From a virus (lineage: Duplodnaviria > Caudoviricetes), in IMG/VR virus record IMGVR_UViG_3300033273_000833, positions 96,001 to 160,000 of that record: DNA of 64,000 bases; one strand, given 5' to 3'. Position 1 is the stretch's first letter. Each line of letters begins with the position of its first letter. Below the pieces are notes generated by a model. It was not told the origin of the DNA, did no database searches, and saw nothing but the letters and a program-made list of their open reading frames with translations. Below, piece after piece: positions 2,446 to 19,559 of this stretch. Made by a program: the position numbers and the translations under genes.

Positions 2446-3579
2446 ATGATACCAATTTACAAGCCTTATTTACCTCCCAATAGCCTGCGATATGCGCACG
2501 AAGCTATAGATTCTGGCTGGATATCTTCTCAAGGAAAATACGTCTCTCAGGCAGAAGATATGGTTAAAGAAAAAAATCAATCTAAATTCGCCCTCTTAAC
2601 CAATAGCGGAACTTCTGCGACCCATTTACTTTCTATAGGCCTAAAGCACAAATACCCTGACATAGATACATTGATTGTTCCAAACGGCGTATATGTTGCC
2701 GCGTGGAATAGCTTCATGATGTCAGAAGATTATATTTTTAGAGTTGCCGAAATGAATCCAGACACCTGGAACTCAAACTATATTGACGCAATACATGCAG
2801 AGCATAACCTAAAAGACATTATACCTCATTTAGATCACGCAAGAATGATCGGCGTTCTCGTCGTTCACAATCTTGGGAATATAGTGAATGTACCTAAAAT
2901 TCAAAACAGCATTCGCAATTGGAGTAATCGTACCATTTTTGTTGAAGATAATTGCGAGGGTTTTTTAGGTTCATACAACAACACCTTAAGCGGTAACGCT
3001 TCATTACTTTCTTCTGTCTCTTTTTTTGGAAATAAAACCATAACAAGTGGCGAGGGCGGAGCAGTTTTCACTAATGACGAAGAATTATTTGAGCACCTCA
3101 ACTCCGTTAAAAATCAAGGAAACTGTTCTGGTAATTATATTTTCAATAAATTAGGTTACAATTATCGCATGACCAATGTTCAAGCTGCCATACTCCTAGG
3201 GCAACTAGAAATCTTAGATGAAATATTGGAAAAAAAGCGGACAATATTCAATACTTATAAACAAGAATTATGCATGGTTGATGAAATAGATTTTCAGGAA
3301 GCCGAAGTAGATACATCACATTCAAATTGGATGTTTTCTATAAAATGCAAATTAAAATCAGCAGCAGATTTACAATTAAATTTATACAGAAACAAGATTG
3401 ACTCACGCAGTATGTTCCCTCCAATAAATCAACACAAACACTTAAGTCAACATGCTCATGACTGCGTCGCAGATGAGCTATGGAGGAGCGTTTTAATGCT
3501 GCCCAGTTACCCTGAATTAACAAAGCCTGAAGTTGTATGCATTTGCAAACATATTAAAAATTATTTTAAAAAGAATTAA
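2446..3579 (+). CDS. DegT/DnrJ/EryC1/StrS PLP aminotransferase, perosamine-synthase-like
   Basis: SGWISSQG, VEDNCE, SFFGNKTITSGEGG (PLP lysine), GYNYRMTNVQAA. Confidence 0.9.
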   Translation: MIPIYKPYLPPNSLRYAHEAIDSGWISSQGKYVSQAEDMVKEKNQSKFALLTNSGTSATHLLSIGLKHKYPDIDTLIVPNGVYVAAWNSFMMSEDYIFRVAEMNPDTWNSNYIDAIHAEHNLKDIIPHLDHARMIGVLVVHNLGNIVNVPKIQNSIRNWSNRTIFVEDNCEGFLGSYNNTLSGNASLLSSVSFFGNKTITSGEGGAVFTNDEELFEHLNSVKNQGNCSGNYIFNKLGYNYRMTNVQAAILLGQLEILDEILEKKRTIFNTYKQELCMVDEIDFQEAEVDTSHSNWMFSIKCKLKSAADLQLNLYRNKIDSRSMFPPINQHKHLSQHAHDCVADELWRSVLMLPSYPELTKPEVVCICKHIKNYFKKN

Positions 3580-3588
3580 TGAAATCCA

Positions 3589-4851
3589 ATGAATAGTAAA
3601 TTAATTATACCAAAAGCTTGTTTCGAGAAGCAATTTGGTTTTTGCCTCATCAATCATGACGACAAAAAAGCTTACCGTTTTGTAACAAAAGAATGTTCGA
3701 ATTTTTTGAAATCTAATGCTTACCAATCTAAATCTTCGGATTTATGGATTCAAGCTAAACATATAAACCAGAAAGAAATAGACTATCCCCATCAACCTAA
3801 TCTTGAACTATTCGAGGTTGATTATGTCCAAAATGTATTTTATTGGACTGAAATGTCATTTTTTGATATCAAAAAAAGCTTGATTAAATTGTGTGATATT
3901 TGTATTTTTTTAAGTGAAAACAACTATAGCATACAATCCCATTTATGGAATATTGTCCTTCAAAAAGGTGAGCCGATTTTAATTGACTTAGGGGATTTTA
4001 AACATGGCGCTAATAAATATTTTGTATTTGAAACAATAAGGAGTACTCTAAAAGAGCATTGCGAAGAACATCATTGTCCTAAAAATTTGCACGGGAAAAT
4101 TTGGATAAAAAACTATAAAGATATTTTGAGTAGAATTAATGATCTTCAAAATAATATTAATATATATCATGCCAGTGATTTATCGAAAAAATTGAAAGAT
4201 ATTATTTTGTCTATCGAAATTAATTTAGAGAAACATTATTGGGATAGCTATCCTGCACAAAAAAACATACCGAAAGACCGCAATGAAATACTTAAATACG
4301 CTCAAAATAATTCAGGCGCCAAAAGCTTGAATTTATGCAAAATAATTTCAAATGAAAAACCCAAAACTCTGATTGATATCGGATGCTCTAGAGGTCTGTA
4401 TTCTACATACGCTACTTTATCTTGTGAAGCAACTTGCACAGGTATAGATTATAGCCACGAGTTAGTTTCATCAGCTAACGAGCTTTCTAGAAACTTAAAC
4501 CTAAATAATAATTTTGCTTTCATAGATCTATTAAATCTAAAAAAATATGGATTTAAAAATGCTTATGAAAGTTTTTTAGAGCGATTTAGATGCGAAATGC
4601 TTATAGCCCCTGCTGTTATTCATCACTTGAATGGTCGGGGCGTTCTATTAAAGGATATCATTAACCAATGGTGCAAAATCACTTCTAATTGCTTGATGAT
4701 TGAATATATTAGCAAAGATACCCTTGGTAATGAAATAAGTTTGGATGCTATAAAAAACTACCTTGCTTTGAATAGATTTTCAGATATAAAAATTTTAGAT
4801 TCTAGTTCTGTAGACAGAAAATGGATTTACGCTAAAAAACTTTTAAATTAA
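3589..4851 (+). CDS. NoeA-like protein: kinase-like N-terminus plus class I SAM methyltransferase
   Basis: YWTEMSF...HLWNIV..GEPILIDLGDF followed by LIDIGCSRG and APAVIHHL. Confidence 0.6.
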   Translation: MNSKLIIPKACFEKQFGFCLINHDDKKAYRFVTKECSNFLKSNAYQSKSSDLWIQAKHINQKEIDYPHQPNLELFEVDYVQNVFYWTEMSFFDIKKSLIKLCDICIFLSENNYSIQSHLWNIVLQKGEPILIDLGDFKHGANKYFVFETIRSTLKEHCEEHHCPKNLHGKIWIKNYKDILSRINDLQNNINIYHASDLSKKLKDIILSIEINLEKHYWDSYPAQKNIPKDRNEILKYAQNNSGAKSLNLCKIISNEKPKTLIDIGCSRGLYSTYATLSCEATCTGIDYSHELVSSANELSRNLNLNNNFAFIDLLNLKKYGFKNAYESFLERFRCEMLIAPAVIHHLNGRGVLLKDIINQWCKITSNCLMIEYISKDTLGNEISLDAIKNYLALNRFSDIKILDSSSVDRKWIYAKKLLN

Positions 4852-4906
4852 AATATATAAAATATATCGGTTTAAAAACCTTAATTGTGTAATATAATTT
4901 TATAGA

Positions 4907-5959
4907 ATGAAGAAAATTATCATAACAGGAGTAACAGGTCAAGACGGTAGCCACATGGTAGACTATCTCTTAAAATTATTTAACGAAGAGTTTGGTAAAA
5001 CAGACTACATGATATACGGATCGATAAGAAGGTTAAGTGTCAAGAATCATGAAAACATTTTACATCTAGAAGATGAGCCTAGATTTCAGTTAATTGACAT
5101 GGATCTAAATGATCCTCACAGTATTCGTGACGTGGTCATCGATATTCAGCCTGATTACTTTATTAACTTTGCGGCTCAATCCTTTGTGGCAGGAAGCTGG
5201 AAATATCCAATACAAACGTGGGACACTGATGCAGATGCCGTTCTTCATATTTTAGAATCAATTCGTAGATTTGCACCAAATTGTAGATTTTATAATGCTG
5301 GATCATCTGAAGAATTTGGAGATGTCATTTATAGCCCTCAAGACGAAAAGCATCCACTTCGCCCTCAATCTCCTTATGGAGCTGCAAAATGTGGTGCTAG
5401 GCATATAGTCAGAGTCTATAGAGAATCTTATGGTCTATATGCAGTTCAAGGCTGGTTATTTAATCATGAAGGAACTCGCAGAGGACTTGACTTTGTAACT
5501 CGAAAAATTACTCATACTATCGCTAGAATTAAAATTGCTCTTGAAAATAACAAACCCCTACCAATTCTTAAACTTGGAAACTTAGAGGCTAAAAGAGACT
5601 GGAGTGACTCAGAAGATTTTATGGAGGGAGTATGGTTAATGCTAAATCAAGACGCTCCTAAAAATTATGTTCTAGGAAGCGGTGAAATGTTTACTGTTAG
5701 GGAGTTTTTAAATATTTGCCTTAAATATGCTGGTATTGAGTTTGAAACTAGAGGCTCTAATGATTCCGAAGAATATTATACAAAAGAAGGTGCTCTATTT
5801 TTTCAGGTAGATCCTAAATTTTATCGACCTGCAGAAGTTCATGAGCTGTGTGGAGATCCATCTCTTGCTGAAAAAGAATTAGGCTGGGTAAGAAAAACTT
5901 CATTCGAAGCCTTAGTAAAAAAGATGTACGACAATGACTACCAATTACTCAATCACTAA
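4907..5959 (+). CDS. gmd: GDP-mannose 4,6-dehydratase
   Basis: ITGVTGQDGSHM, NFAAQSFV, PQSPYGAAK, FNHEGTRRG, LGNLEAKRDW. Confidence 0.95.
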   Translation: MKKIIITGVTGQDGSHMVDYLLKLFNEEFGKTDYMIYGSIRRLSVKNHENILHLEDEPRFQLIDMDLNDPHSIRDVVIDIQPDYFINFAAQSFVAGSWKYPIQTWDTDADAVLHILESIRRFAPNCRFYNAGSSEEFGDVIYSPQDEKHPLRPQSPYGAAKCGARHIVRVYRESYGLYAVQGWLFNHEGTRRGLDFVTRKITHTIARIKIALENNKPLPILKLGNLEAKRDWSDSEDFMEGVWLMLNQDAPKNYVLGSGEMFTVREFLNICLKYAGIEFETRGSNDSEEYYTKEGALFFQVDPKFYRPAEVHELCGDPSLAEKELGWVRKTSFEALVKKMYDNDYQLLNH

Positions 5960-6908
5960 AGATTCAAAAATTTTCATCGCAGGCCACAGAGGAATGGTCG
6001 GCTCTGCGACATTAGATTGTCTTAAAGCTCAAGGCTATCAAAACATCGTAACTAAAAACAGGAAAGAGCTTGACTTAACAAACCAAAAAGATGTTGATTC
6101 TTTTTTTGAAAAGGAACAAATCAACATTGTTATTCTATGCGCGGCAAAAGTTGGAGGGATACTCGCCAACAATACTTATAGAGGAGATTTCCTTTATGAT
6201 AATTTACTCATTAGTGCAAACATTATTAAAGCCGCCCGAGATTGCTCTGTAGGTAAATTAATCAATCTAGGCTCGTCTTGCATTTATCCTAAAAATTCGG
6301 ATTTACCAATTAAAGAAGAAAGTCTTTTGAGCGGATTTCTAGAGTCTACAAACGAGCCTTATGCTATAGCTAAAATTGCGGGATTAAAATTATGCGAAGC
6401 ATTCTACCACCAATACTCTAGTAATTTTTACTCAATTATGCCATGCAATTTATACGGCGAAAGAGATAATTTTGACCTCAAAAGCTCTCACGTACTTCCT
6501 GCGTTTATTAACAAATTCCATACTGCAAAAGAAAGTGATTTAGATTTTGTTAAAATTTGGGGCTCAGGAAAACCTAAAAGAGAATTTTTGCATGTTAGGG
6601 ATTTGGCTAACGCTATACTGTTTTGCTTGGAGAATGTTGAAGCTGAAGACATATACAAGTACAATATTTCTCACTTGAATTGCGGTTCATCTCAAGAAGT
6701 TTCTATCCTAGAGTTAGCCAACTTGATTAAAAAAACTGTAAAATATAAGGGCGAAATCAGATTCGATAAATCGAAGCCAGATGGAACTTTTAGAAAAGTT
6801 ATGAACAATAATAGAATCTTCAAATTAGGCTTTTTACCTCAGATATCTCTCGAGGATGGGATTAAACAAACATATAATTGGTATATAAAAAATAATGAAA
6901 AAAAATAA
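5934..6908 (+). CDS. fcl: GDP-L-fucose synthase
   Basis: IAGHRGMVGS, AAKVGGILAN, LGSSCIYPK, TNEPYAIAKIAG, GSGKPKREFLHV. Confidence 0.95.
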   Translation: MTTNYSITKDSKIFIAGHRGMVGSATLDCLKAQGYQNIVTKNRKELDLTNQKDVDSFFEKEQINIVILCAAKVGGILANNTYRGDFLYDNLLISANIIKAARDCSVGKLINLGSSCIYPKNSDLPIKEESLLSGFLESTNEPYAIAKIAGLKLCEAFYHQYSSNFYSIMPCNLYGERDNFDLKSSHVLPAFINKFHTAKESDLDFVKIWGSGKPKREFLHVRDLANAILFCLENVEAEDIYKYNISHLNCGSSQEVSILELANLIKKTVKYKGEIRFDKSKPDGTFRKVMNNNRIFKLGFLPQISLEDGIKQTYNWYIKNNEKK

Positions 6909-7818
6909 ATTTTTAGTAACTGGTGGAGCTGGATTCATTGGTAGTAATCTTGTTGACTTATTAATAGAAGAAGGTCACGAAGTAACTGTTGTGGATAATT
7001 TATCAACAGGCAAAGAGTCAAATTTAAACCCAAAAGCGAATTTTGAAATACTTGATATAAGTCATTCTTGCAATCAAGAAAAACTGACCAAGTTAATGGT
7101 TGGTTGTGATGGCGTTTTTCATCTTGCGGCTCTTGCCAGGGTTCAGCCTTCGATTGAAGACCCTAATGAATTTAATAAACAAAACGTTAATGGAACACTA
7201 AATGTTATTGTTGCTGCTCGCGACTCAAAAGTTAAAAGAGTGGTGTACAGCGCCAGCTCCGCCGCTTACGGGGACGCTGAAGTTTTACCTACTCCAGAAG
7301 ATTTCCCAACCGACCCTTTGAGTCCTTATGGTTTACAAAAATTAATTGGAGAACAGTATTGCAGAGTTTTTTATCATTGTTACGGTTTAGAGACTGTTAG
7401 CCTTCGCTATTTTAATGTTTTTGGGGAAAGGCAGTCTCTAGATAGTGGCGCTTATAAACTGGTTATGAGTGTATTTGCACAGCAAAGGCTGGAGGGAAAG
7501 CCTCTGACGATAACAGGAGATGGCGAACAGCGTAGAGATTTTACCTACGTTGGGGATGTTGCTAGAGCAAATCTTTTGGCAATGACTTCAGAAAATGTTG
7601 GAAGCGGAGAAGTTATTAATATAGGCTGCGGAGATAATCGTTCAGTAAATCAGCTCGCTGATCTTATGGGCGGGGAAAAAACATATATAGAAAAAAGGCT
7701 TGAACCTCAAGAAACCCTTGCCGACAACAGCAAAGCTAAAAAACTCTTAGAATGGGAGCCAACCGTGTCAATTGAAGAATGGGTTCCAAAATATAAAAAA
7801 TCCTTAAATATTGATTAA
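6895..7818 (+). CDS. NAD-dependent nucleotide-sugar epimerase/dehydratase (extended SDR)
   Basis: TGGAGFIGS, YGLQK (YxxxK), LRYFNVFG, GDGEQRRDFTYV. Confidence 0.9.
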   Translation: MKKNKFLVTGGAGFIGSNLVDLLIEEGHEVTVVDNLSTGKESNLNPKANFEILDISHSCNQEKLTKLMVGCDGVFHLAALARVQPSIEDPNEFNKQNVNGTLNVIVAARDSKVKRVVYSASSAAYGDAEVLPTPEDFPTDPLSPYGLQKLIGEQYCRVFYHCYGLETVSLRYFNVFGERQSLDSGAYKLVMSVFAQQRLEGKPLTITGDGEQRRDFTYVGDVARANLLAMTSENVGSGEVINIGCGDNRSVNQLADLMGGEKTYIEKRLEPQETLADNSKAKKLLEWEPTVSIEEWVPKYKKSLNID

Positions 7819-8262: not shown

Positions 8263-10533
8263 ATGAAAATTCTAACTATTCTATTATTGTCATCAATTTT
8301 CTGCTTTGGTGATGTTCTTTATTTTAATAACGGAAAAGACCTAAAAGGCGATATTATTGAAGCGAACGCGACACACGCATTAATTAAAAGATCAAGCGAC
8401 TTGCAGTTATTTAGAATCGCTATCGATTCTTTAACAGAAGACAATCGGGCGTATATTAAAAACAATTTTGCACCCAGCCATGAAGCTCTACCTAAGTTCA
8501 ATAAACCCTTGTCTGATAAAGAGTTAACTACCCACTCCAAATACATTGATAGTTTAATTGAAACAAAATTAAGATCATACAATCTTAGGTCGAATAAAGA
8601 AGTTGATGATGCCACTTTTTTGCGCAGATCTTATTTAAAAATTATCGGCAGAACACCATCATTAACCGAAGTAGACTCCTTTTTAAATAGCAGAGAAAAT
8701 AATAAAAGATCTAAATTAATTGATCAATTACTAGGCAGCGAAGGCTATGTAAGCCATTGGTTTAATTTTTGGGCAGATATATTAAGAATAAAAGATCGAC
8801 TGAATAATAGAATATCTGGAGTGCCATACAAAAATTATGTAAAAGATTTTATATCTAATAATAGGCCTTACGATGAATGGGTAAGAGAGATGCTTTCCTC
8901 TTCTGGCCCATTATGGATAAAAGGCAATGAAGGAGTTAGTTATTTTGCTCGAGATGTAAATATGCCTCTTGACAGCATGGCTAATACAGTCCGAGTTTTT
9001 TTAGGTACTAGCCTTGAATGCGCTCAGTGCCATGATCACCCTTTTGATCGTTGGACACAAAAACAATTTTATGAAATGGCAGCATTTACGAGTGGGTCAA
9101 CCAATTTAAGAATAAAGAGTCCAGATAATTTAACTCAGTTAAACAGGCTAGTGAGGGACGAAAGAAAAAAACTAGAAGATTCAGATCAGCCTCAAAAATC
9201 AAGACAATTATCAAATGCTGTCAGAGATATCCAAGATATTCTGCAAACTGGTTTAACTAGTTTAGGAAATGGTAAGATAAATTTACCGAAAGATTATCAA
9301 TATAACAATGCAAAACCAAATGAAGTTTTATTAGGTAAAACAATTTTTGGAAAAGAAATCGATATCAAAACTAAAGCTCCTGACGCTGGTTCTAGAGAGA
9401 TTTACGCTAATTGGTTGGCTTCAGATTCTAACCCAAGATTTACCGCTGTAATTGTAAATCGTTTATGGAAAGAAGTGTTTGGGCTTGCCTTAATTGAACC
9501 TCTGGATAATATGTTCGACGATACTCTCGCAACTGATACAAAACTTCAGTTACATTTGGAAAAAGTTATGGTTGCATTAGATTATGATTTAAAAGAATTT
9601 TTGAGGATATTATATAACACAAAGACTTTTCAAAGACAATCTGTAGTTCGAGATGTAATACCTAAAGACAATAAAGATCAGTCTATGCCTGTAGATGTAA
9701 AATGGATCATAGCTGGACCAAATGTAGAAAAGCAATCTCAAGGAGCAATTCCATATTTCTATCAAGGGCCAATACTCGAAAGAATGAGTGGCGAGCAAAT
9801 CTGGGACTCTTTAGTCAACTTAACCTTTAATGATATAGACTCTAGAAAATTAGAGCAAAACACAAAAGGTTACCAGAATTACGAAAATTTTTCCGAAATG
9901 ACTGGAGAAGAATTGTTTGCAGACATAATGGCTAAAATTAATAAAACAGAAAAGCCAAAAATAGAGAAGAAGACTAAGTTTTCTGAACCTATCAACACCG
10001 ACTGCCCCATAAAGCCTGGGAGGGCAATTGATCCAACATTATTAGCTCTAAACGAAAACGGAGAAACTCTTGCGTTTTGTTGCGAATCTTGCGTTGATAA
10101 ATATAAATCCCAGCAGAAAGCTAGAGAACAAGAGTATAAGCAGAATTTTGTTAAAGATAGAAACTCTGTCAGAGCCTCTGAACTGCCTTCCCCTGCTCCG
10201 ATTGGTCACTTAATCCGAGAGTTTGGAGGTTCGGATAGAGAGCAGATAGAAAATGCGCATAAAAGCGCCTCTGCAACACAAGTATTAAATTTACTCAATG
10301 GGTTTGTAGAAACTAGATTATTAAAAAATAAAAACTTTGAAATTATTAAAGCAATTCAATCTCAAAAATCATTAAATGATAAAATAAAAGTTGGATATAA
10401 ATACATACTAAATAGAGAGCCTGACACTAAAGAGTTAAGAATTTTTTCTGACAATTTAAAAAACGCAAAAGAACCTTATAAAGAAATAATATGGACGCTA
10501 ATCAATACTCATGAATTCATGTTTATTAAATAA
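8263..10533 (+). CDS. DUF1549/DUF1553 (PSCyt2/PSD1) protein with signal peptide, SHD1-like N-domain, CxxCH motif and YHS-like insert
   Basis: FLRRSYLKIIGRTP, WFNFWADILR, ECAQCHDHPFDRWTQKQFY, NPRFTAVIVNRLW, IWTLINTHEF. Confidence 0.9.
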   Translation: MKILTILLLSSIFCFGDVLYFNNGKDLKGDIIEANATHALIKRSSDLQLFRIAIDSLTEDNRAYIKNNFAPSHEALPKFNKPLSDKELTTHSKYIDSLIETKLRSYNLRSNKEVDDATFLRRSYLKIIGRTPSLTEVDSFLNSRENNKRSKLIDQLLGSEGYVSHWFNFWADILRIKDRLNNRISGVPYKNYVKDFISNNRPYDEWVREMLSSSGPLWIKGNEGVSYFARDVNMPLDSMANTVRVFLGTSLECAQCHDHPFDRWTQKQFYEMAAFTSGSTNLRIKSPDNLTQLNRLVRDERKKLEDSDQPQKSRQLSNAVRDIQDILQTGLTSLGNGKINLPKDYQYNNAKPNEVLLGKTIFGKEIDIKTKAPDAGSREIYANWLASDSNPRFTAVIVNRLWKEVFGLALIEPLDNMFDDTLATDTKLQLHLEKVMVALDYDLKEFLRILYNTKTFQRQSVVRDVIPKDNKDQSMPVDVKWIIAGPNVEKQSQGAIPYFYQGPILERMSGEQIWDSLVNLTFNDIDSRKLEQNTKGYQNYENFSEMTGEELFADIMAKINKTEKPKIEKKTKFSEPINTDCPIKPGRAIDPTLLALNENGETLAFCCESCVDKYKSQQKAREQEYKQNFVKDRNSVRASELPSPAPIGHLIREFGGSDREQIENAHKSASATQVLNLLNGFVETRLLKNKNFEIIKAIQSQKSLNDKIKVGYKYILNREPDTKELRIFSDNLKNAKEPYKEIIWTLINTHEFMFIK

Positions 10534-10895
10534 TCCCATTTCTTATATTTAAATATATAAATCATATTGCTTTTAATATAAATCCACCCCAACTTTTCTG
10601 CATAAAAATACCCTTTTTTGTTGGGCATATTATAAACCCATCCTAATTTTTTTGAATATATCCAATCATTGCTTATTGATTTTTGATAAGTTCCATATAC
10701 CCTGCCAAGCCCCTTCATATCGAACCATATAGACTTAGGTTTTTTCTGGCATTTAGCCATCCATTCGCCAATATCTAAAGGTTCTCTATATTTAGCTTTT
10801 TTTTTACACCAATCACAATCATCCAGAAAATCATCTAATTCAACCCTAGCTCCTGTACAAACGCAAATCATTACAAAAATAAAGAAAAACCTCAC
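10509..10895 (-). CDS. Secreted small protein with Trp/Gly repeats (KLGWVY, KLGWIY)
   Basis: Hydrophobic N-terminus, CDWC, repeated LGW motif; own GTGTAT motif 8 nt upstream of the GTG start. Confidence 0.55.
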   Translation of the reverse strand: MRFFFIFVMICVCTGARVELDDFLDDCDWCKKKAKYREPLDIGEWMAKCQKKPKSIWFDMKGLGRVYGTYQKSISNDWIYSKKLGWVYNMPNKKGYFYAEKLGWIYIKSNMIYIFKYKKWDYLINMNS

Positions 10896-10950
10896 ATTTA
10901 TGTATACACAAATTGTTTGATTTTTTAAAAAATGTGTATATAATATTATT

Positions 10951-12243
10951 ATGAACTTAAATACAATAGACGAATTAGGAAGAAGAGAATTTATAGCTCA
11001 TGCCGCCAGAGCATGTTTTGGAGTAGGGTTAATGCCGATGGCGGGGGCATACATACATAATAGTGTTAGCGCTTTACAGCCTGGAGCTAGAGTTCCAACA
11101 GCCAGACACGTTATTTATTTAAATATGGCAGGGGCAATGTCTCATCTGGACACATTTGGCCCGAAACCCGATGCTCCTGATATCCAAGGCCCAACTCAGT
11201 CTATTTCTACAAGTGCAGACGGTATTATTTTATCAGAAAATTTACCCTTAACCGCTCAACACATGCATAATGGCTCTATTATTAAAACAATGGTTACGAG
11301 TCAAGGCGCGCATGAGCAAGCAAGCTACCTAATGCACACAAGCTATCTTAAAAGAGGCACTATTGTACACCCAACTTTTGGTAGCTGGGTTTCAAAACTT
11401 TCAGGATCAATCAATAGAACGATTCCAAGTAATATAAAAATCGGCGGAGGCGGAGGTGGAGCTGGATTTTTAGAGTCTAAATACGGAGCACTTCCCATCA
11501 ATAATCCTTCATCAGGTTTAGCTAATAGTAAGATGGCTTCATACTTAGATCATGAGCATTTTCAGAGCAGAATATCTATTGCAGAACAGTTAAACGAAAA
11601 TTTCTCCACAGAGTTTCCTCAAAAGCAAGTTAGAGCTTATGGTGACCTCTATAAAGACGCCATTAAATTAATGAATAGCAATGATCTTAATGCGTTCGAT
11701 ATAACCCAAGAAGCTGAGTCAACAAGTTCTCTCTACGGACCAACTAATTTTGGTAAAGGCTGCCTACTAGCAAGAAGGCTAGTGGAGCATGGAGTAAGAT
11801 ATGTTGAAGTCACAAGAGGAGGATGGGACACTCATGACAATAATTTTGAAAGAGTAGCGGCTAATTGCGCTGATATAGACAAGGCCTTAAGTGGGCTACT
11901 TATAGACTTAGATAGAAGAGGTCTGCTATCAGAAACTCTAGTTGTTCTAACTTCAGAATTTGGACGCACTCCAAACATTAACGGCAGAGACGGCAGAGAT
12001 CACTGGCCTTACTGCTTCACAGCGTTCCTAGCAGGAGGCGGAGTCAAAGAAGGCTTTAGTTACGGAGAGACAGATAAAACTGGCAGATCCCCTACGGAAG
12101 GCAAACCAATTAAGCCTGAAGATCTGAATGCTACAATTGCTCATACGCTAGGCTTACCACTAAATGACTATCAGTATTCGCCGTCAGGAAGGCCTTTTAC
12201 CATAGCTCATAAAGGCGAGCCTTTATTTGATATTTTGGCTTGA
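10951..12243 (+). CDS. DUF1501 family protein with Tat-type signal
   Basis: GRREFIA twin-arginine signal; GAMSHLDTFGPKP, GGWDTH, SEFGRTP, GRDHWP. Confidence 0.9.
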   Translation: MNLNTIDELGRREFIAHAARACFGVGLMPMAGAYIHNSVSALQPGARVPTARHVIYLNMAGAMSHLDTFGPKPDAPDIQGPTQSISTSADGIILSENLPLTAQHMHNGSIIKTMVTSQGAHEQASYLMHTSYLKRGTIVHPTFGSWVSKLSGSINRTIPSNIKIGGGGGGAGFLESKYGALPINNPSSGLANSKMASYLDHEHFQSRISIAEQLNENFSTEFPQKQVRAYGDLYKDAIKLMNSNDLNAFDITQEAESTSSLYGPTNFGKGCLLARRLVEHGVRYVEVTRGGWDTHDNNFERVAANCADIDKALSGLLIDLDRRGLLSETLVVLTSEFGRTPNINGRDGRDHWPYCFTAFLAGGGVKEGFSYGETDKTGRSPTEGKPIKPEDLNATIAHTLGLPLNDYQYSPSGRPFTIAHKGEPLFDILA

Positions 12244-13561: not shown

Positions 13562-14382
13562 ATGAACAATAAATTCCTATCTATTCTTGAATATTCTTTA
13601 AATAAGTTTATGCCATATGTTTTAATTAGTTTTTTAGTGTTTTTTGAATTTGGATTTTATAAAGTTCAACCATACATAATCATGGGGCTATTGTGTTTTC
13701 TAGACAAACATTCTTTCAGAGTTGGGTACGCAGTAGCTCTTTGCGAACAAAAAGGTATCGATCTTGAGAAATGGGAAGAATAAGAGTGTAATCTTGTTTG
13801 TGCAAGAAAGAATTATAAATTTGCTTTTAACAATTATTGGTTGTTGTGTAGTATTCTATATTTTTAAACAAAATCACGAAATAACTTACTTGAAAGATAC
13901 AATTAGACTGCAACACGAAGCAATAGAAAGGCAAAATGTTTTAATCGACTTCCAAAAAAGAATCATGTATCCCGATAATTTCAAAAATGAATTTCAGCCA
14001 ACTTATAAATAAGCAATCATACAAGCGTATATTTAATATATTATATTCAAGTCATTATAAACATGAACGATCCTCTACCGTCTCAGAAATTGATGTAAAA
14101 TCGCGAGCAGCTTGGGATGTTTTATTAAAAACTCAGCCTCAAAGATCCAAGCATGAAATATATGTGGCTTTTTGTAAAGACTTTGAAAATAAAAAATTTG
14201 CTTGTGCAGAATTGCAGAACATTAAAAGTAAACTTTTTCATGATTTTGATCAAGTTGCTTGGCAGGAAGTTTTGGGTTCAAATATTATCAATCACACAGA
14301 TCTACCAGACGAAAAAATATGTGCAATAATTTTTTGGCACCTGACAATGAATTCTTTCGAGCTAAATAAGACAAATGGATAG
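13562..14382 (+). other. Three hypothetical ORFs (13562-13783 membrane; 13800-14012 TM plus coiled coil; 13987-14382)
   Basis: ORF track; second start moved to the in-frame GTG at 13800, 8 nt after GTGTAA. Confidence 0.55.
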
Positions 14383-15319
14383 ACAGCCTTGGTGGTTCGA
14401 TAGAAACCTTGACGAAATTATAGGAGAGAATCCTATTATTTTAAATAATGTTTACATTGGGGCGAAAGGCTCTGTTTTTAACGAGCAAAAACAACCTATA
14501 TACTTAAACAACATAAAGGAAACGCATGAATCTGCTAAATTCCACAAATCCCAAAAAATTCATGAACTTAAAGGAGAATATATATACATGCTTTCTGAAC
14601 ATGATATCCAAGTATATGGGCATATTGGAGAAGATTTCTCTAGGCTTAGATTTTTTGAGGATGATAAATTTAAAAAATGCTCGGTTCTTAAAAACGTAGG
14701 ACATTTCACAAGCTGGCAAGGGCTTAGTAAAAGAGAATGCCTAACAAAACATCTAGAATTTTTTGGCTACCCTCCATCTCGGCAAAAGGAATTAACCTTA
14801 AGCCCCTCTCCTTCGGGAATTACTTATAAGATAGACACCCTACATTTAGCGCCTCGAACCATTAATGTTGAAAGTATTAATTTTTTCACTCAAACATGGA
14901 GGAAAGCATTATCTCTCCCTCAATATAAAAATAAAAACAATAAAATTTATTTATCACGACCTCATCGACCAGATCAGCGCGCCGTGCTTAATAATTCTGA
15001 AGTTGAAAAGTATTTAAGGCAAGAAGGTTTTTATATATGGACAGGTAAAGAAAATCTTGAGGATCAAGTGCATCTTTTCAGGGATGCTGATGTAATTATT
15101 GGGCCTCACGGAGCCGCTTTTTTTAACTGCATTTTTTGCCAAAACAAACCTTTAATATTAGAATTCATGCCCTCATCAAGGAGTGTATATATGTTTCGAA
15201 ATCAATCTCATATTATTGGTAACAAGAACCATAAAGTAATCGAATGCGATTCGGATAAAAATTGGAATCATGAAATAAATATAGATATAATTAAAAATGA
15301 AATACTTGCTATACGATAA
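14375..15319 (+). CDS. Glycosyltransferase family 61 (DUF563) protein
   Basis: KIYLSR, R.VLNNSEV, QVHLFRDADVIIGPHGAAFFN. Confidence 0.8.
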   Translation: MDRQPWWFDRNLDEIIGENPIILNNVYIGAKGSVFNEQKQPIYLNNIKETHESAKFHKSQKIHELKGEYIYMLSEHDIQVYGHIGEDFSRLRFFEDDKFKKCSVLKNVGHFTSWQGLSKRECLTKHLEFFGYPPSRQKELTLSPSPSGITYKIDTLHLAPRTINVESINFFTQTWRKALSLPQYKNKNNKIYLSRPHRPDQRAVLNNSEVEKYLRQEGFYIWTGKENLEDQVHLFRDADVIIGPHGAAFFNCIFCQNKPLILEFMPSSRSVYMFRNQSHIIGNKNHKVIECDSDKNWNHEINIDIIKNEILAIR

Positions 15320-16049
15320 TCTAGTGCGCGGTGCAGGCCTTGGTCACTTAATGAATTGCTATAATTATGGTCTAGACTATAGCATCAGAGAAGACATGGA
15401 ATGGGTTCCTATCAGAATTAAGTGTGGACATCATTTAGGCTCAGGTGGGCATGTAATAGAAAATGAATTAGGGTTACCTATTTTCGAAGATTCTTATCGA
15501 GAAAATATTAAAAAAAACCATAAATACGAACATAAAGAGTATAATCCAAAATATAGTCCAACATCAGAATCTACAGAGCTGACAGGAAAAATATTAAAAG
15601 ACTGGTATACGACTTCTCGAAAAGGGCTCTCAAGTAAGTTTTTAAGTCAAGATAAAGTCAATATATGCATTTCGATTAGAAGGGGGGATATATCCGCCAC
15701 CCCAAACCATTCAATGAGAGATCGGCTTCGGCCCTTAAGTTACTATACAAATATGTTGAATGAAATTATTAAAGAAAATGGCGTATCTAAGTATAGAATC
15801 ATTCTCTCTACTGATTTGCGTGGGCATCGTGATTGCCTAGTTGATATGGACAACCAACCTCATTCAGTGGAAAAAATATTCAAAAACCACTTGGATGATT
15901 TAATATTCCTGCCTTTTTGCGAAGATGATCCAGACTCCAATGAATATCATACTTTTGATTTTTTTCATACAGCGATAGCTTCTGATTTTTTCATTGGCAG
16001 TAATAGTGGTTTTAGTCATATTATTGAAAATTATTATAGATCAAAATGA
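15297..16049 (+). CDS. Putative fucosyltransferase-like (GT11/GT23-like) protein
   Basis: GAGLGHLM start, ISIRRGD, DFFIGSNSGFS end motifs. Confidence 0.5.
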   Translation: MKYLLYDNLVRGAGLGHLMNCYNYGLDYSIREDMEWVPIRIKCGHHLGSGGHVIENELGLPIFEDSYRENIKKNHKYEHKEYNPKYSPTSESTELTGKILKDWYTTSRKGLSSKFLSQDKVNICISIRRGDISATPNHSMRDRLRPLSYYTNMLNEIIKENGVSKYRIILSTDLRGHRDCLVDMDNQPHSVEKIFKNHLDDLIFLPFCEDDPDSNEYHTFDFFHTAIASDFFIGSNSGFSHIIENYYRSK

Positions 16050-16786: not shown

Positions 16787-17290
16787 ATGAACTTATATAA
16801 CATTGCAAAACACTGTAATTCACCCGAAAAAGTATACGGAGTAGTTGAAATACCCAAAGACACAAACGTAAAGTATGAATATCGCCCTGATTTAGAAGCA
16901 TTTATTTATGATAGGAGCTTATTAAGCTCTATGGTTTATCCATCTAATTATGGCTTTATCCCTAGTACAAAAGCTGAAGACGGAGACGCCTTAGATGTGT
17001 TGATTTATAATGGAACTCCTATTGACAGAGCTACTATAGTAGAGTGTAAAATAATTGGTGTATTAGACATGGAAGACGAAGGGCAAAAAGATTACAAAGT
17101 TTTAGTAACTCCTGTTTCTCATGTTAAAAAATATCGAGGTCTTGAGGACATTGACCCTCATTTTTTAAATATATGTAAAAATTTCTTTTCTCATTACAAA
17201 GACTTAAATGGAAAAAAGGTAGAAGTTTTTGAATGGCATGATAGTGATTTTGCTAAAAATATAGTCGAAAAAAGTTATATCAAATATTAG
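16787..17290 (+). CDS. ppa: Inorganic pyrophosphatase, family I
   Basis: VEIPK..NVKYEY, YPSNYGFIP, DGDALDVL, DEGQKDYK. Confidence 0.92.
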   Translation: MNLYNIAKHCNSPEKVYGVVEIPKDTNVKYEYRPDLEAFIYDRSLLSSMVYPSNYGFIPSTKAEDGDALDVLIYNGTPIDRATIVECKIIGVLDMEDEGQKDYKVLVTPVSHVKKYRGLEDIDPHFLNICKNFFSHYKDLNGKKVEVFEWHDSDFAKNIVEKSYIKY

Positions 17291-17311
17291 TGGTGTAATG
17301 CTTTGTGTACT

Positions 17312-17701
17312 ATGGAACACAAACATCTTTTAATAAATGCAACTTTCAAGGAAACCCCATTTACAAATGTAGATTTCACAAATAAATGGCTTTTAGATAT
17401 TGTTGACTTAATAGGAATGGAAGTGCTTCACCCACCAACTTCTGTTAGATGCGAGCAAGAAGGAAATAAAGGCATTAGTGGGTTTTGCCTTATAACCACA
17501 AGCCACATTTGCTTACATTCATGGGAAGAGAGAGAGCCGAACTTACTGCAACTTGATGTTTACAGCTGTAAAGATTTTGATCGAAATTTAATTAGAAATG
17601 AAATCGAAAAATTCAAACCTCTTTCTTTTGGATTCAAGTTTTTGGATAGAAAAATCAAAAACACAAAAGGTTGGGCTGTTTTTGACGAAAATAAAGCGTG
17701 A
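17312..17701 (+). CDS. Pyruvoyl-dependent S-adenosylmethionine decarboxylase-like proenzyme, divergent copy
   Basis: GISGFCLITTSHICLHSW cleavage region, LDVYSC. Confidence 0.85.
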   Translation: MEHKHLLINATFKETPFTNVDFTNKWLLDIVDLIGMEVLHPPTSVRCEQEGNKGISGFCLITTSHICLHSWEEREPNLLQLDVYSCKDFDRNLIRNEIEKFKPLSFGFKFLDRKIKNTKGWAVFDENKA

Positions 17702-18468
17702 AAATATATTTCCGACATTACTCAGGGGCAATTACTGAATATGATTATTTATTTTTTGACTGCATGGCAGAAGTTTCTTTACCTGAAGAAGATAAAGCTT
17801 TATGTGAAGGTTGGTTACCTGATGATTATTTAATTAAAAAAGACTCTTTAGGTAATATTTCAAAATCACATTGGTATCAAGCAAGGCAAACGAGAATTAA
17901 TTTAAGTAAATTTTTGGATACCCGAAGCACTAGAAAAGCTCGAAAGAAATGTAAACAAATAACAACTAAATGCTTAAACGCAAAAGAGATAGATTTAAAT
18001 ATTTTACAAGATATTTTTGATAAATATTTTGAGTATAGAAATTTCAAGAAATGGGATTTAGAACCATTGATTTTAGCAGAGCCTCATAGAAAATATTTTT
18101 TAATTTATTATTTAAATGAAAAACCTATTGCATTTACATTCCTGAGAGATGTTGGGTCGAGTAGCGTGTTCTCAACTCAATTTGCATGGGACTATGAAAA
18201 CCCGAAATTATATTTAGGCAAATATGCAAATCTCGCAGAGATAGACTATTGTATCGCAAATAATAAGAATTATATGTACCTTGGTTTTGGTTATGAAAAA
18301 TCTTGTATGTATAAAGCAGATTATAAAGGTTTTGAATTTTGGACAGGAGAGAATTGGTCTAATGATACAGAACAATATAAATGGTTGTGCGAAAGAGATT
18401 CTAAAATAATTAAAACAAGTGATTTGGATAAAATAAAGAAATATGATGATAAAAATTTTTTTAAATGA
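17698..18468 (+). CDS. Aminoacyl-tRNA:protein transferase-like (Bpt/ATE_C)
   Basis: QARQTRI, WDYENPKLYLGKYANLAEI, YMYLGFGY..SC.YKADY match the ATE/Bpt C-terminal pattern. Confidence 0.7.
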   Translation: MKIYFRHYSGAITEYDYLFFDCMAEVSLPEEDKALCEGWLPDDYLIKKDSLGNISKSHWYQARQTRINLSKFLDTRSTRKARKKCKQITTKCLNAKEIDLNILQDIFDKYFEYRNFKKWDLEPLILAEPHRKYFLIYYLNEKPIAFTFLRDVGSSSVFSTQFAWDYENPKLYLGKYANLAEIDYCIANNKNYMYLGFGYEKSCMYKADYKGFEFWTGENWSNDTEQYKWLCERDSKIIKTSDLDKIKKYDDKNFFK

Positions 18469-18917
18469 TTAAAGATTATATAGAATACATTTCGCTTAAA
18501 AGAAAAGAATTGGGAGGTCATGCAATTTGCCCGTTCGCTAAAACTTTTTTAAATAAAGTCGAAATAATAGAGTCGAAAGATTTTTGGGTCGATGCTATCA
18601 AATGCATGGACAATAAAGATCACCCAATGTTATATCTTATATATGGAGACAGAAATAGATATGATACTGAATGGCTTAAGTGGTTCTGCGAAATACATGA
18701 GCAATATTCAAAAGATAAGGACTTGTGGTTAATATGGGATCATCCCGACCAAATAAATAAAATAAACGGAATTGATACAAATAACAAAGAATATGCTATT
18801 CTGTTAATACAAAAATTATCTGAATTAAATAAATATTCTGAAAAGTTACATAAAACAAATTATTATGGATTTTGGGATGAAAAATACTATAATAAAATAG
18901 TGGAAAGGAGAAAATAA
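18465..18917 (+). CDS. DUF1415-like protein
   Basis: N-terminal AICPFAK motif. Confidence 0.45.
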   Translation: MIKDYIEYISLKRKELGGHAICPFAKTFLNKVEIIESKDFWVDAIKCMDNKDHPMLYLIYGDRNRYDTEWLKWFCEIHEQYSKDKDLWLIWDHPDQINKINGIDTNNKEYAILLIQKLSELNKYSEKLHKTNYYGFWDEKYYNKIVERRK

Positions 18918-18919
18918 AA

Positions 18920-19111
18920 ATGAAAAAACTTTGGTTAATTTGGGCTAGAACACTAGATCATCGCGTTGGTAGAACTGATGACGATCAGCCCGATATTCCA
19001 ATTTTATCTTTGCGAGATGCTCAATTTAGTTTAATCTTGAGGACGATTATAGTCGTTGTAAATATAACAACTTGTTTCTTTATAATAGCAAATATAATTA
19101 AAAATTGGTGA
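18920..19111 (+). CDS. Small membrane protein
   Basis: 63 aa with a C-terminal hydrophobic helix. Confidence 0.55.
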   Translation: MKKLWLIWARTLDHRVGRTDDDQPDIPILSLRDAQFSLILRTIIVVVNITTCFFIIANIIKNW

Positions 19112-19154: not shown

Positions 19155-19559
19155 ATGTATTTAGGTAGTCACGAATTAGTTGAATTTTATAATTGCGATG
19201 AAGATATTTTAAAAGATTCTGATTTAATAAAAAGAATATTTATTGAGTCTGCTAAACTGGGTAATGCAAATATAGTTAATAGTCTATTTCATTCTTTCAG
19301 TCCGTATGGGGTCACAGGAGTCTTAGTGATTGCAGAAAGTCATATGAGTATTCATACATGGCATGAATTTAATTATTGTGCCGTTGATATATTTTCTTGT
19401 TGCGATAAATTAAATAATAAAATTGTTTTAGAAGACTTAAAAGACAAACTATTCAGCAGTAGATATGAATCAAAACTAATTAATAGGGGGAATAAATATA
19501 TTATCGAACAAAGTGCAAATAAAAAGTTGACAAATAAACAAAAATCTGTCATTATATAA
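19155..19559 (+). CDS. speD: S-adenosylmethionine decarboxylase proenzyme (class 1B)
   Basis: LGSHELVEFYNC, FSPYGVTGVLVIAESHMSIHTW, VDIFSC. Confidence 0.9.
   Translation: MYLGSHELVEFYNCDEDILKDSDLIKRIFIESAKLGNANIVNSLFHSFSPYGVTGVLVIAESHMSIHTWHEFNYCAVDIFSCCDKLNNKIVLEDLKDKLFSSRYESKLINRGNKYIIEQSANKKLTNKQKSVII

Follow-up and report, generated by a model that had tools for sequence, protein, structure and literature searches.

A cysteine-less ATE/Bpt-fold aminoacyl-tRNA transferase homologue encoded in an arginine/polyamine gene cassette of an uncultured T4-like marine phage

The 256-residue protein described here is a member of the ATE/Bpt superfamily of aminoacyl-tRNA transferases by both descent and fold, and it departs from the Asp/Glu-specific N-degron enzymes in their defining features; it is no ordinary Bpt. 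As far as we know, transferases of the ATE/Bpt type have been known only as N-degron writers on acidic protein ends. The phage protein is a real, conserved and viral-specific variant whose role is probably other than classic degradation tagging, because the parts for recognition of acidic ends are lost and the gene lies inside an arginine/polyamine cassette. The stretch of DNA that was analysed (64,000 nucleotides, hereafter the window) corresponds to bases 96001–160000 of a 203,067-bp IMG/VR virus record, for which CheckV gave a completeness of 100%. The GC content of the window is approximately 32%, rIIA and rIIB are present, and there are many auxiliary genes. On these grounds the source, which is uncultured, is a T4-like marine myovirus, and the phage origin assigned in the preliminary description of this DNA is supported.

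The positions of the ATE-like gene and of the other genes of the cassette are shown in Table 1. The GTG start codon of the ATE-like gene overlaps the stop codon of the gene before it (GTGA), and the stop codon of the ATE-like gene overlaps the following ATG (ATGA). In the window's lineage, both flanking genes are translationally coupled to it. Homologues also conserve the 22 residues ahead of the first internal Met, which shows that the protein truly begins at the GTG and that a call of 234 residues from the ATG is too short. The open reading frame proposed earlier at 17698–18468 is real, including its N-terminus. The median pairwise dN/dS value of the gene, calculated against 13 related loci, is approximately 0.12, and the gene is under purifying selection. 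A scan for promoters and terminators gave a signal no better than chance.

Table 1 Coordinates of the ATE-like gene and the cassette genes in the window.
Feature	Position	Strand	Description
Inorganic pyrophosphatase	16787..17290	+	Head of the cassette; Pfam Pyrophosphatase 1.9e-46
SpeD-like1	17303..17701	+	Divergent class-1b AdoMetDC-fold pyruvoyl proenzyme; Pfam AdoMet_dc 6e-12
ATE-like gene	17698..18468	+	256 aa; ATE/Bpt-fold aminoacyl-tRNA transferase homologue without the Cys cluster and Arg pocket
p150 (phrog_10325)	18465..18917	+	Small protein with invariant GGHxICPFAK; start overlaps the ATE-like stop
p63	18920..19111	+	Small and conserved; hydrophobic segment at the C-terminus
SpeD2	19155..19559	+	S-adenosylmethionine decarboxylase proenzyme; Pfam AdoMet_dc 6.1e-34

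The family assignment was examined at the levels of domain models, structure and profiles. The preliminary description had recognised an ATE_C pattern in the C-terminal half of the protein, and Pfam ATE_C (PF04377) indeed matched residues 121–214 with an E-value of 1.1e-9 and a score of 39.4 bits against the cut-off of 25. The same model also matched 52 of 75 relatives of the protein. The other domain of the pair, ATE_N (PF04376), was found neither in the phage protein nor in any of the 75 relatives. The NCBIfam arginyltransferase equivalogs (NF002341–NF002347) gave 19–42 bits against cut-offs of 170–267, the best being 42.3 against 170. The AlphaFold2 model, which was built with 75 homologues, had a mean pLDDT of 90.9. 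In a Foldseek search of the PDB with this model, human ATE1 was the top match (8tzv_A, E-value of 4.2e-10) and was followed by the yeast ATE1s, and MprF and FemX appeared only afterwards. Among the structural matches, which also include Sbb17/Sba18 with streptothrisamine, only ATE1 spans residues 1–256, including the region of the N-terminal beta-hairpin. An unrelated GNAT such as FemAB, which had been raised beforehand as the finding that would overturn the assignment, is thus not the best structural match. Alignment of the family profile by hhalign with five genuine Bpt proteins, drawn from gammaproteobacterial genomes, gave a probability of 96.6% and an E-value of 6e-10. Profiles of genuine Bpt find ATE1 at 1e-23 to 1e-28 with ATE_N included, whereas the profile of the ATE-like family reaches ATE1 at 5e-5 only, via the GNAT core. 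Some database sources label relatives of the protein as 'arginyl-tRNA--protein-N-Asp/Glu arginylyltransferase'.

The residues lost and kept were compared in a full-length MAFFT alignment that combined phage and cellular sequences with Bpt, with a tally over 115 distinct viral sequences. All four metal-site cysteines of Bpt/ATE1 are absent in 115/115 sequences, where Gly, Tyr/Ile, Ala and similar residues are found instead; the earlier remark that the N-terminal Cys motif appears reduced was an understatement. The GFRRSG motif aligns with G38-W39-L40-P41-D42-D43 (GWLPDD) of the phage protein, and positions 40–41 are Arg in none of the 115 sequences. The RH-GGGMD loop, which is invariant in Bpt, is missing, and the C-terminus carries approximately 35 extra residues relative to Bpt. 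In Ate1 of K. lactis (klAte1), recognition of N-terminal Asp/Glu requires R80, an arginine of GFRRSG, and the Cys4 site adjoins the active-site cleft (PMC9351520).

Other core residues are kept. E181, K206, R63, R66, W164, and Y110 are each present in all 115 viral sequences and Y205 in 113 of them, and these core residues persist across clades that are only approximately 30% identical. The Tyr-Lys pair Y205-K206, at a position close to the site of acyl transfer, corresponds to Y303/K304 of klAte1, which were also examined in that study (PMC9351520), and its analogue in FemX is K305, the mechanism of which has been described (PMC12945691). In the alignment, Y110 corresponds to klAte1 Y173 and W164 to klAte1 W260. 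Glu181, located in the donor pocket, is at the position of ATE1 E277, where Bpt has Gln (Q189 in the V. vulnificus enzyme). ATE1 E277 was inferred to bind the Arg of Arg-tRNA, as E277K was inactive and E277D was similar to the wild type; Bpt, with Leu as the donor, has Gln at this position, and the donor pocket of V. vulnificus Bpt is hydrophobic or neutral (A168, A185, Q189, and L201) (PMC9351520). A basic helix (residues 75–86, RSTRKARKKCK) lies at the position of klAte1 K112–K123, a correspondence at the sequence level only, and the family median for this helix is 7 K/R per 16 residues. Judged from these alignments, the phage protein has kept the donor and tRNA apparatus, and its acceptor side has been rebuilt.

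The GNAT core, the Tyr-Lys pair, the Trp, the acidic donor-pocket residue and a basic helix of the alpha-3 type are common to the phage protein and eukaryotic ATE1 (8tzv, 7wfx/7wg1, 8e3s, and 7tif), while the phage protein is half the size, lacks the Cys4 Zn/Fe-S site, has Leu-Pro in place of the R80 pocket, has lost His178 and shows 17–20% identity. With bacterial Bpt (the PRK01305 arginyltransferase models) it shares a length of approximately 240–256 residues and motifs in the same linear order, but it is without ATE_N, the conserved cysteines and the RH-GGGMD loop, and it has Glu for the donor-pocket Gln. The proposal of a Bpt/ATE1-like transferase thus holds for family and fold and not for Bpt-specific function. 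In particular, the suggested transfer of Leu to N-terminal Asp/Glu for delivery to ClpS-ClpAP is contradicted by the replacement of the GFRRSG arginines with Leu-Pro and by the Glu in the donor pocket, and Leu tagging in the Bpt style is further opposed by the wide margin below the equivalog cut-offs and by the absence of ClpS and ClpP. The accompanying caveat that the substrate may differ was well placed.

Several components were looked for in the complete phage genome. A search for tRNA genes found none and one tmRNA only, and a phage-supplied tRNA was rejected as the donor on this basis. ClpS and ClpP were both absent from the genome, which excludes a phage-encoded Clp system, and agmatinase was not found there either.

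The ATE-like branch is virus-specific, large and confined to uncultured viruses. A word-indexed search with the phage protein returned 214 proteins, and an exhaustive profile search gave 767 clusters at 50% identity, 214 of which were below 1e-10. Scans of viral contigs confirmed 300 loci, a number that later rose to at least 533. Only three loci were detected among 185,579 species genomes; one of the three resembles phage DNA in a MAG. A tblastn search of 50,697 deposited phage genomes with the ATE-like protein and a clade-B relative gave no match, and a search of the literature on phage arginyltransferase found no paper on a phage-encoded ATE/Bpt-like gene. In the maximum-likelihood tree, all viral sequences are in one clade (97/97), which is sister to a cellular Cys-less group (99/97), with Bpt as a long-branch outgroup.

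In the window's lineage, the cassette has the order of pyrophosphatase, SpeD-like1, ATE-like gene, p150, p63, and SpeD2. This operon context, with its decarboxylase, CPFAK protein, and SpeD, was missing from the preliminary description. The pyrophosphatase is near the cassette in five of the close loci, and p63, with 76–87% identity in related loci, shifts its place in the cassette among related phages. SpeD2 scored 118.6 bits with TIGR03330, above the cut-off of 75.65, and is a bona fide AdoMetDC; a homologue of spermidine synthase (SpeE) is located elsewhere (genome 27705–28286). The stop codon of SpeD-like1 overlaps the start of the ATE-like gene, and its product scored 38.1 bits with TIGR03330, which is under the cut-off of 75.65. 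SpeD-like1 keeps Ser67, which forms the pyruvoyl group, as well as the catalytic His72 and Cys89, and its cleavage site is T-S instead of E-S. Its best cultured matches are HTVC201P-type pelagiphage genes, with 39.5% identity and an E-value of 8e-24. The HTVC201P enzyme has been proven to decarboxylate L-arginine in a pyruvoyl-dependent manner and lacks AdoMetDC activity (PMC9992855), and neofunctionalised SpeD enzymes are widespread (PMC10407285). Like SpeD-like1, the phage SpeD-derived pyruvoyl arginine/ornithine decarboxylases (HTVC201P SpeDA) are below the AdoMetDC equivalog threshold and retain the Ser/His/Cys triad. To judge from its sequence, SpeD-like1 is probably a neofunctionalised Arg or Orn decarboxylase. 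An aminoacyl-tRNA transferase neighbour is not mentioned in either of these papers (PMC9992855, PMC10407285), in which 'arginyl' is absent and 'tRNA' occurs only in unrelated passages. The window's clade comprises 22 loci with shuffled surroundings, and in 21 of them the ATE-like gene directly follows SpeD-like1. p150 is in the locus in all 22 and immediately downstream in 16.

The product of p150 gave no match to Pfam, NCBIfam or PDB sequences, none of its 242 relatives has a Pfam label, and the DUF1415 model had no match in the phage genome. With hhalign, GGHxICPFAK of p150 aligned to CPFAK of DUF1415 (probability of 79% over 31 columns), a language-model atlas pointed to DUF1415 and DUF6875, and the best structural match was AglA. 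In a distant lineage (L162), a p150 relative of 235 residues, which has a sub-threshold match to DUF6875, is convergent to the ATE-like gene. Recent work has identified DUF6875 as the thiolate-haem family cytochrome P422, whose motif is RxGxVCP (bioRxiv 10.64898/2025.12.11.692455). That p150 is a small thiolate-haem enzyme of the DUF1415, DUF6875-P422 or YqcI-YcgG-like type is plausible but unproven.

The partner of the ATE-like gene across the family is a different gene, c1 (phrog_3704), and not the decarboxylase. c1 encodes a protein of 211 residues and is the commonest partner outside the window's lineage. It is directly upstream in 89/89 non-edge loci of the largest clade and occurs in 16/16 loci of the second clade, where inspection of three loci placed it downstream and on the other strand; it also adjoins the ATE-like gene in several further clades. 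No Pfam, NCBIfam or PDB match was obtained for c1, and its Atlas scores were uninformative. The labels 'PurM' and 'ferredoxin' in cyanophage and pelagiphage records are unsupported, as c1 matches no Pfam, NCBIfam or PDB family, and c1 is unrelated to p150. The AdoMet_dc gene is absent from five long contigs of the largest clade. With c1 as the partner elsewhere and with these contigs free of AdoMet_dc, the decarboxylase is therefore dispensable for the core role of the enzyme. The clades in which c1 is the partner diverge around and below that of the window in the tree, which suggests that the association with SpeD and p150 is derived. In one lineage, a gene for signal peptidase S26 lies directly downstream of the ATE-like gene.

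Regarding its function, we regard the protein as a predicted aminoacyl-tRNA-dependent transferase of the ATE1/Bpt lineage, belonging to a Cys-less phage-specific branch with a rebuilt acceptor site. Glu181 at the arginine-binding position of ATE1, together with the absence of tRNA genes from the phage, suggests that a charged tRNA of the host would be the donor and that its amino acid would be basic, with Arg-tRNA(Arg) as the likeliest candidate; for Glu181, we infer this by analogy with one mutagenesis study. The reading that we tentatively favour, at somewhat under an even chance, is an active and probably Arg-tRNA-dependent transferase that would use a small amine of arginine/polyamine metabolism as the acceptor, with oxidative tailoring by p150. 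In this phage lineage, the acceptor would be a primary amine made by the upstream pyruvoyl decarboxylase, for example agmatine or a related compound, an amide would be formed, and the downstream CPFAK protein p150 would then oxidatively modify the conjugate.

The small-amine reading is supported first by the gene context, as the coupled neighbours are small-molecule enzymes, SpeD-like1 is nearest to the HTVC201P arginine decarboxylase, SpeD2 and the pyrophosphatase are in the cassette, and SpeE is encoded elsewhere. The p150-like gene that adjoins the ATE-like gene again in the distant lineage L162 points in the same direction. There are also precedents, one of which is Sbb17/Sba18, tRNA-dependent GNATs with streptothrisamine. 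The other is argolaphos (Streptomyces monomycini), for which AglC is an Arg-tRNA-dependent amide synthase of the GNAT type with a small-amine acceptor, and AglA is a thiolate-haem N-hydroxylase (YqcI/YcgG) that modifies the guanidine after AglC (PMC12866846). AglC and AglA are functionally analogous to the ATE-type transferase coupled to the CPFAK protein in the window, although the scaffold differs. Against the small-amine reading, the partner in most viral lineages is c1 and not a decarboxylase. To our knowledge, the characterised ATE/Bpt members all act on protein N-termini or side chains, and the small-molecule GNAT transferases that use aminoacyl-tRNA are all FemABX-like, with no ATE-like example known to us. 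A small amine as the acceptor would extend the chemistry of the family and would reveal a new phage auxiliary pathway linked to arginine and polyamines. In its most specific form, the proposal is that the phage protein would be the first ATE/Bpt member to aminoacylate a small molecule, giving a conjugate of Arg, taken from host Arg-tRNA, with agmatine or a polyamine supplied by the coupled pyruvoyl decarboxylase, and that a miniature thiolate-haem enzyme would oxidise this conjugate; we consider this form possible but doubtful. If it is true, phages of the ocean would make a modified arginine/polyamine conjugate while they infect, by means of three genes and in dependence on tRNA.

The main alternative, which is a serious possibility although we think it rather unlikely, is a protein-modifying transferase with a new specificity that would attach Arg or a different residue to non-Asp/Glu N-termini or side chains of host or phage proteins. 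Such an enzyme could generate degrons that host proteases read, or it could change how proteins work while the host is taken over, and it would represent a new phage route to rewrite host or phage protein ends. The whole-length ATE1/Bpt architecture is consistent with this, as the known substrates of that family are all proteins, and the occurrence of the enzyme in very different phage types and next to different neighbours fits a self-contained effector. The signal peptidase S26 gene of one lineage and the presence of the enzyme where the decarboxylase is absent also argue for a protein substrate. On the other hand, the pocket for acidic N-termini and the metal site beside the active-site cleft are gone, the phage is without its own ClpS/ClpP, and the coupled neighbours in the window are small-molecule enzymes. 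In bacteria, moreover, N-terminal Arg is a secondary destabilising residue only (Leu/N-degron pathway), which counts against this reading.

Modification of a nucleic acid or another macromolecule from aminoacyl-tRNA, with protection of phage DNA or a change to host RNA as the outcome, is improbable. Mom of phage Mu, a GNAT that uses Gly-tRNA to attach Gly to the N6 position of adenine in DNA, provides a precedent for this (PMC13219725), and the phage-restricted distribution and the strongly basic patches of the ATE-like protein would be compatible with it. No Mom-like protein was present among the top structural matches, however, while ATE1 covers the whole length; in addition, the neighbours are metabolic and not DNA-modification genes, and nothing in the data points to hypermodified DNA. 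The loss of the metal site and of the Bpt-invariant RH-GGGMD loop could alternatively be read as the sign of a non-catalytic relic or a decoy that binds and sequesters charged tRNA without transfer. We give this little weight, since the Tyr-Lys pair, Glu181, Arg63/66, and Trp164 are each kept in 113–115 of the 115 sequences, dN/dS is low and a pseudoenzyme is not expected to keep its donor pocket invariant. Least probable by far is a canonical Bpt that writes N-degrons with Leu from Leu-tRNA for the ClpS-ClpAP route, for which the ATE_C score above the Pfam cut-off and the 'arginylyltransferase' names of relatives speak, and which is contradicted at its defining residues, by the missing ATE_N, by the NCBIfam scores and by the weak profile link to ATE1.

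The closest cellular relatives, designated here as the 'GFLP' group, have the same Cys-less and Arg-less N-terminal layout and the C-terminal extension, but they are chromosomal, share 20–25% identity with the viral clade and do not conserve Glu181 and Glu200. ATE_N was not found in three cellular genomes with relatives. A search with a cellular relative found no member in 121 genomes from the phylum of the Chitinophagaceae MAG in which L082 lies, and the cellular loci L083 and L084 have no neighbours in common. The named members of the group are mostly Cytophagales and other Bacteroidota, and Lysobacterales and KSB1 are also represented. NCBI names these proteins only as 'GNAT family N-acetyltransferase', and the ATE-like family offers a handle on this Cys-less bacterial group as well as on two widespread phage proteins, the CPFAK protein and c1, the 'PurM' of cyanophages and pelagiphages.

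Across at least seven clades, the most constant gene beside the ATE-like (Cys-less ATE1/Bpt-fold aminoacyl-tRNA transferase) genes is c1, a conserved phage protein which was found at locus L039 and at 122 further viral loci. The cultured-phage examples are matches H1–H15. The records of many cyanophages and pelagiphages label c1 as "PurM / phosphoribosylaminoimidazole synthetase" or "ferredoxin"; these labels appear to be wrong, and c1 did not match any of the AIRS, Pfam, NCBIfam, or PDB families. Downstream of the ATE-like gene of a distant lineage (a single case, locus L134) lies a gene for a signal peptidase S26. This adjacency would fit a protein N-terminus as the acceptor of the ATE-like enzyme.

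In the phage genome, about 86 kb separate the SpeE homologue (Pfam Spermine_synth, 6.2e-34) from the two SpeD paralogues. The phage thus has SpeD, SpeE, and a third, divergent decarboxylase. No agmatinase was found in the phage genome. The genome carries a single tmRNA gene, and a search for tRNA genes in it detected none.

The only close "cellular" match to the ATE-like gene is surrounded by short phage-like ORFs and a fibre-like gene with collagen repeats; it probably belongs to a prophage or to a phage contig binned with the wrong genome. Locus L084 holds a cellular Cys-less ATE_C homologue, and the gene before it encodes a 424-aa protein that on visual inspection of its sequence looks like a PurD-type ATP-grasp ligase.

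Elsewhere in the window, the sugar-nucleotide run encodes a DegT-type aminotransferase, GDP-mannose 4,6-dehydratase, two epimerase/reductases, and a methyltransferase-domain protein. The DUF1549/DUF1553 and DUF1501 genes form a pair that Planctomycetota and Verrucomicrobiota typically carry.

Locations of the features discussed (C1, whole phage genome; L-numbers, other loci with ATE-like homologues).
Feature	Location	Remarks
Sugar-nucleotide genes	window 2446-7818	
DUF1549/DUF1553 (PSCyt2/PSD1) and DUF1501 genes	window 8263-12243	full-length
Glycosyltransferase-like genes	window 14375-16049	after sugar-nucleotide run
Spermidine-synthase homologue (SpeE)	C1:27705-28286	outside window
tmRNA gene	C1:66699-67062	outside window; tag peptide GNKNRVKAFGLKAKKLALAA
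c1	L039:1566-2231	211 aa; phrog_3704
Close "cellular" match to ATE-like gene	L082:6001-6675	117.8-kb contig, freshwater-lake Chitinophagaceae MAG
Gene of the 424-aa protein and the cellular Cys-less ATE_C homologue after it	L084:2003-3277 and L084:3314-4096	KSB1 MAG
Signal peptidase S26 gene	L134:4858-5394	69 nt downstream of ATE-like gene
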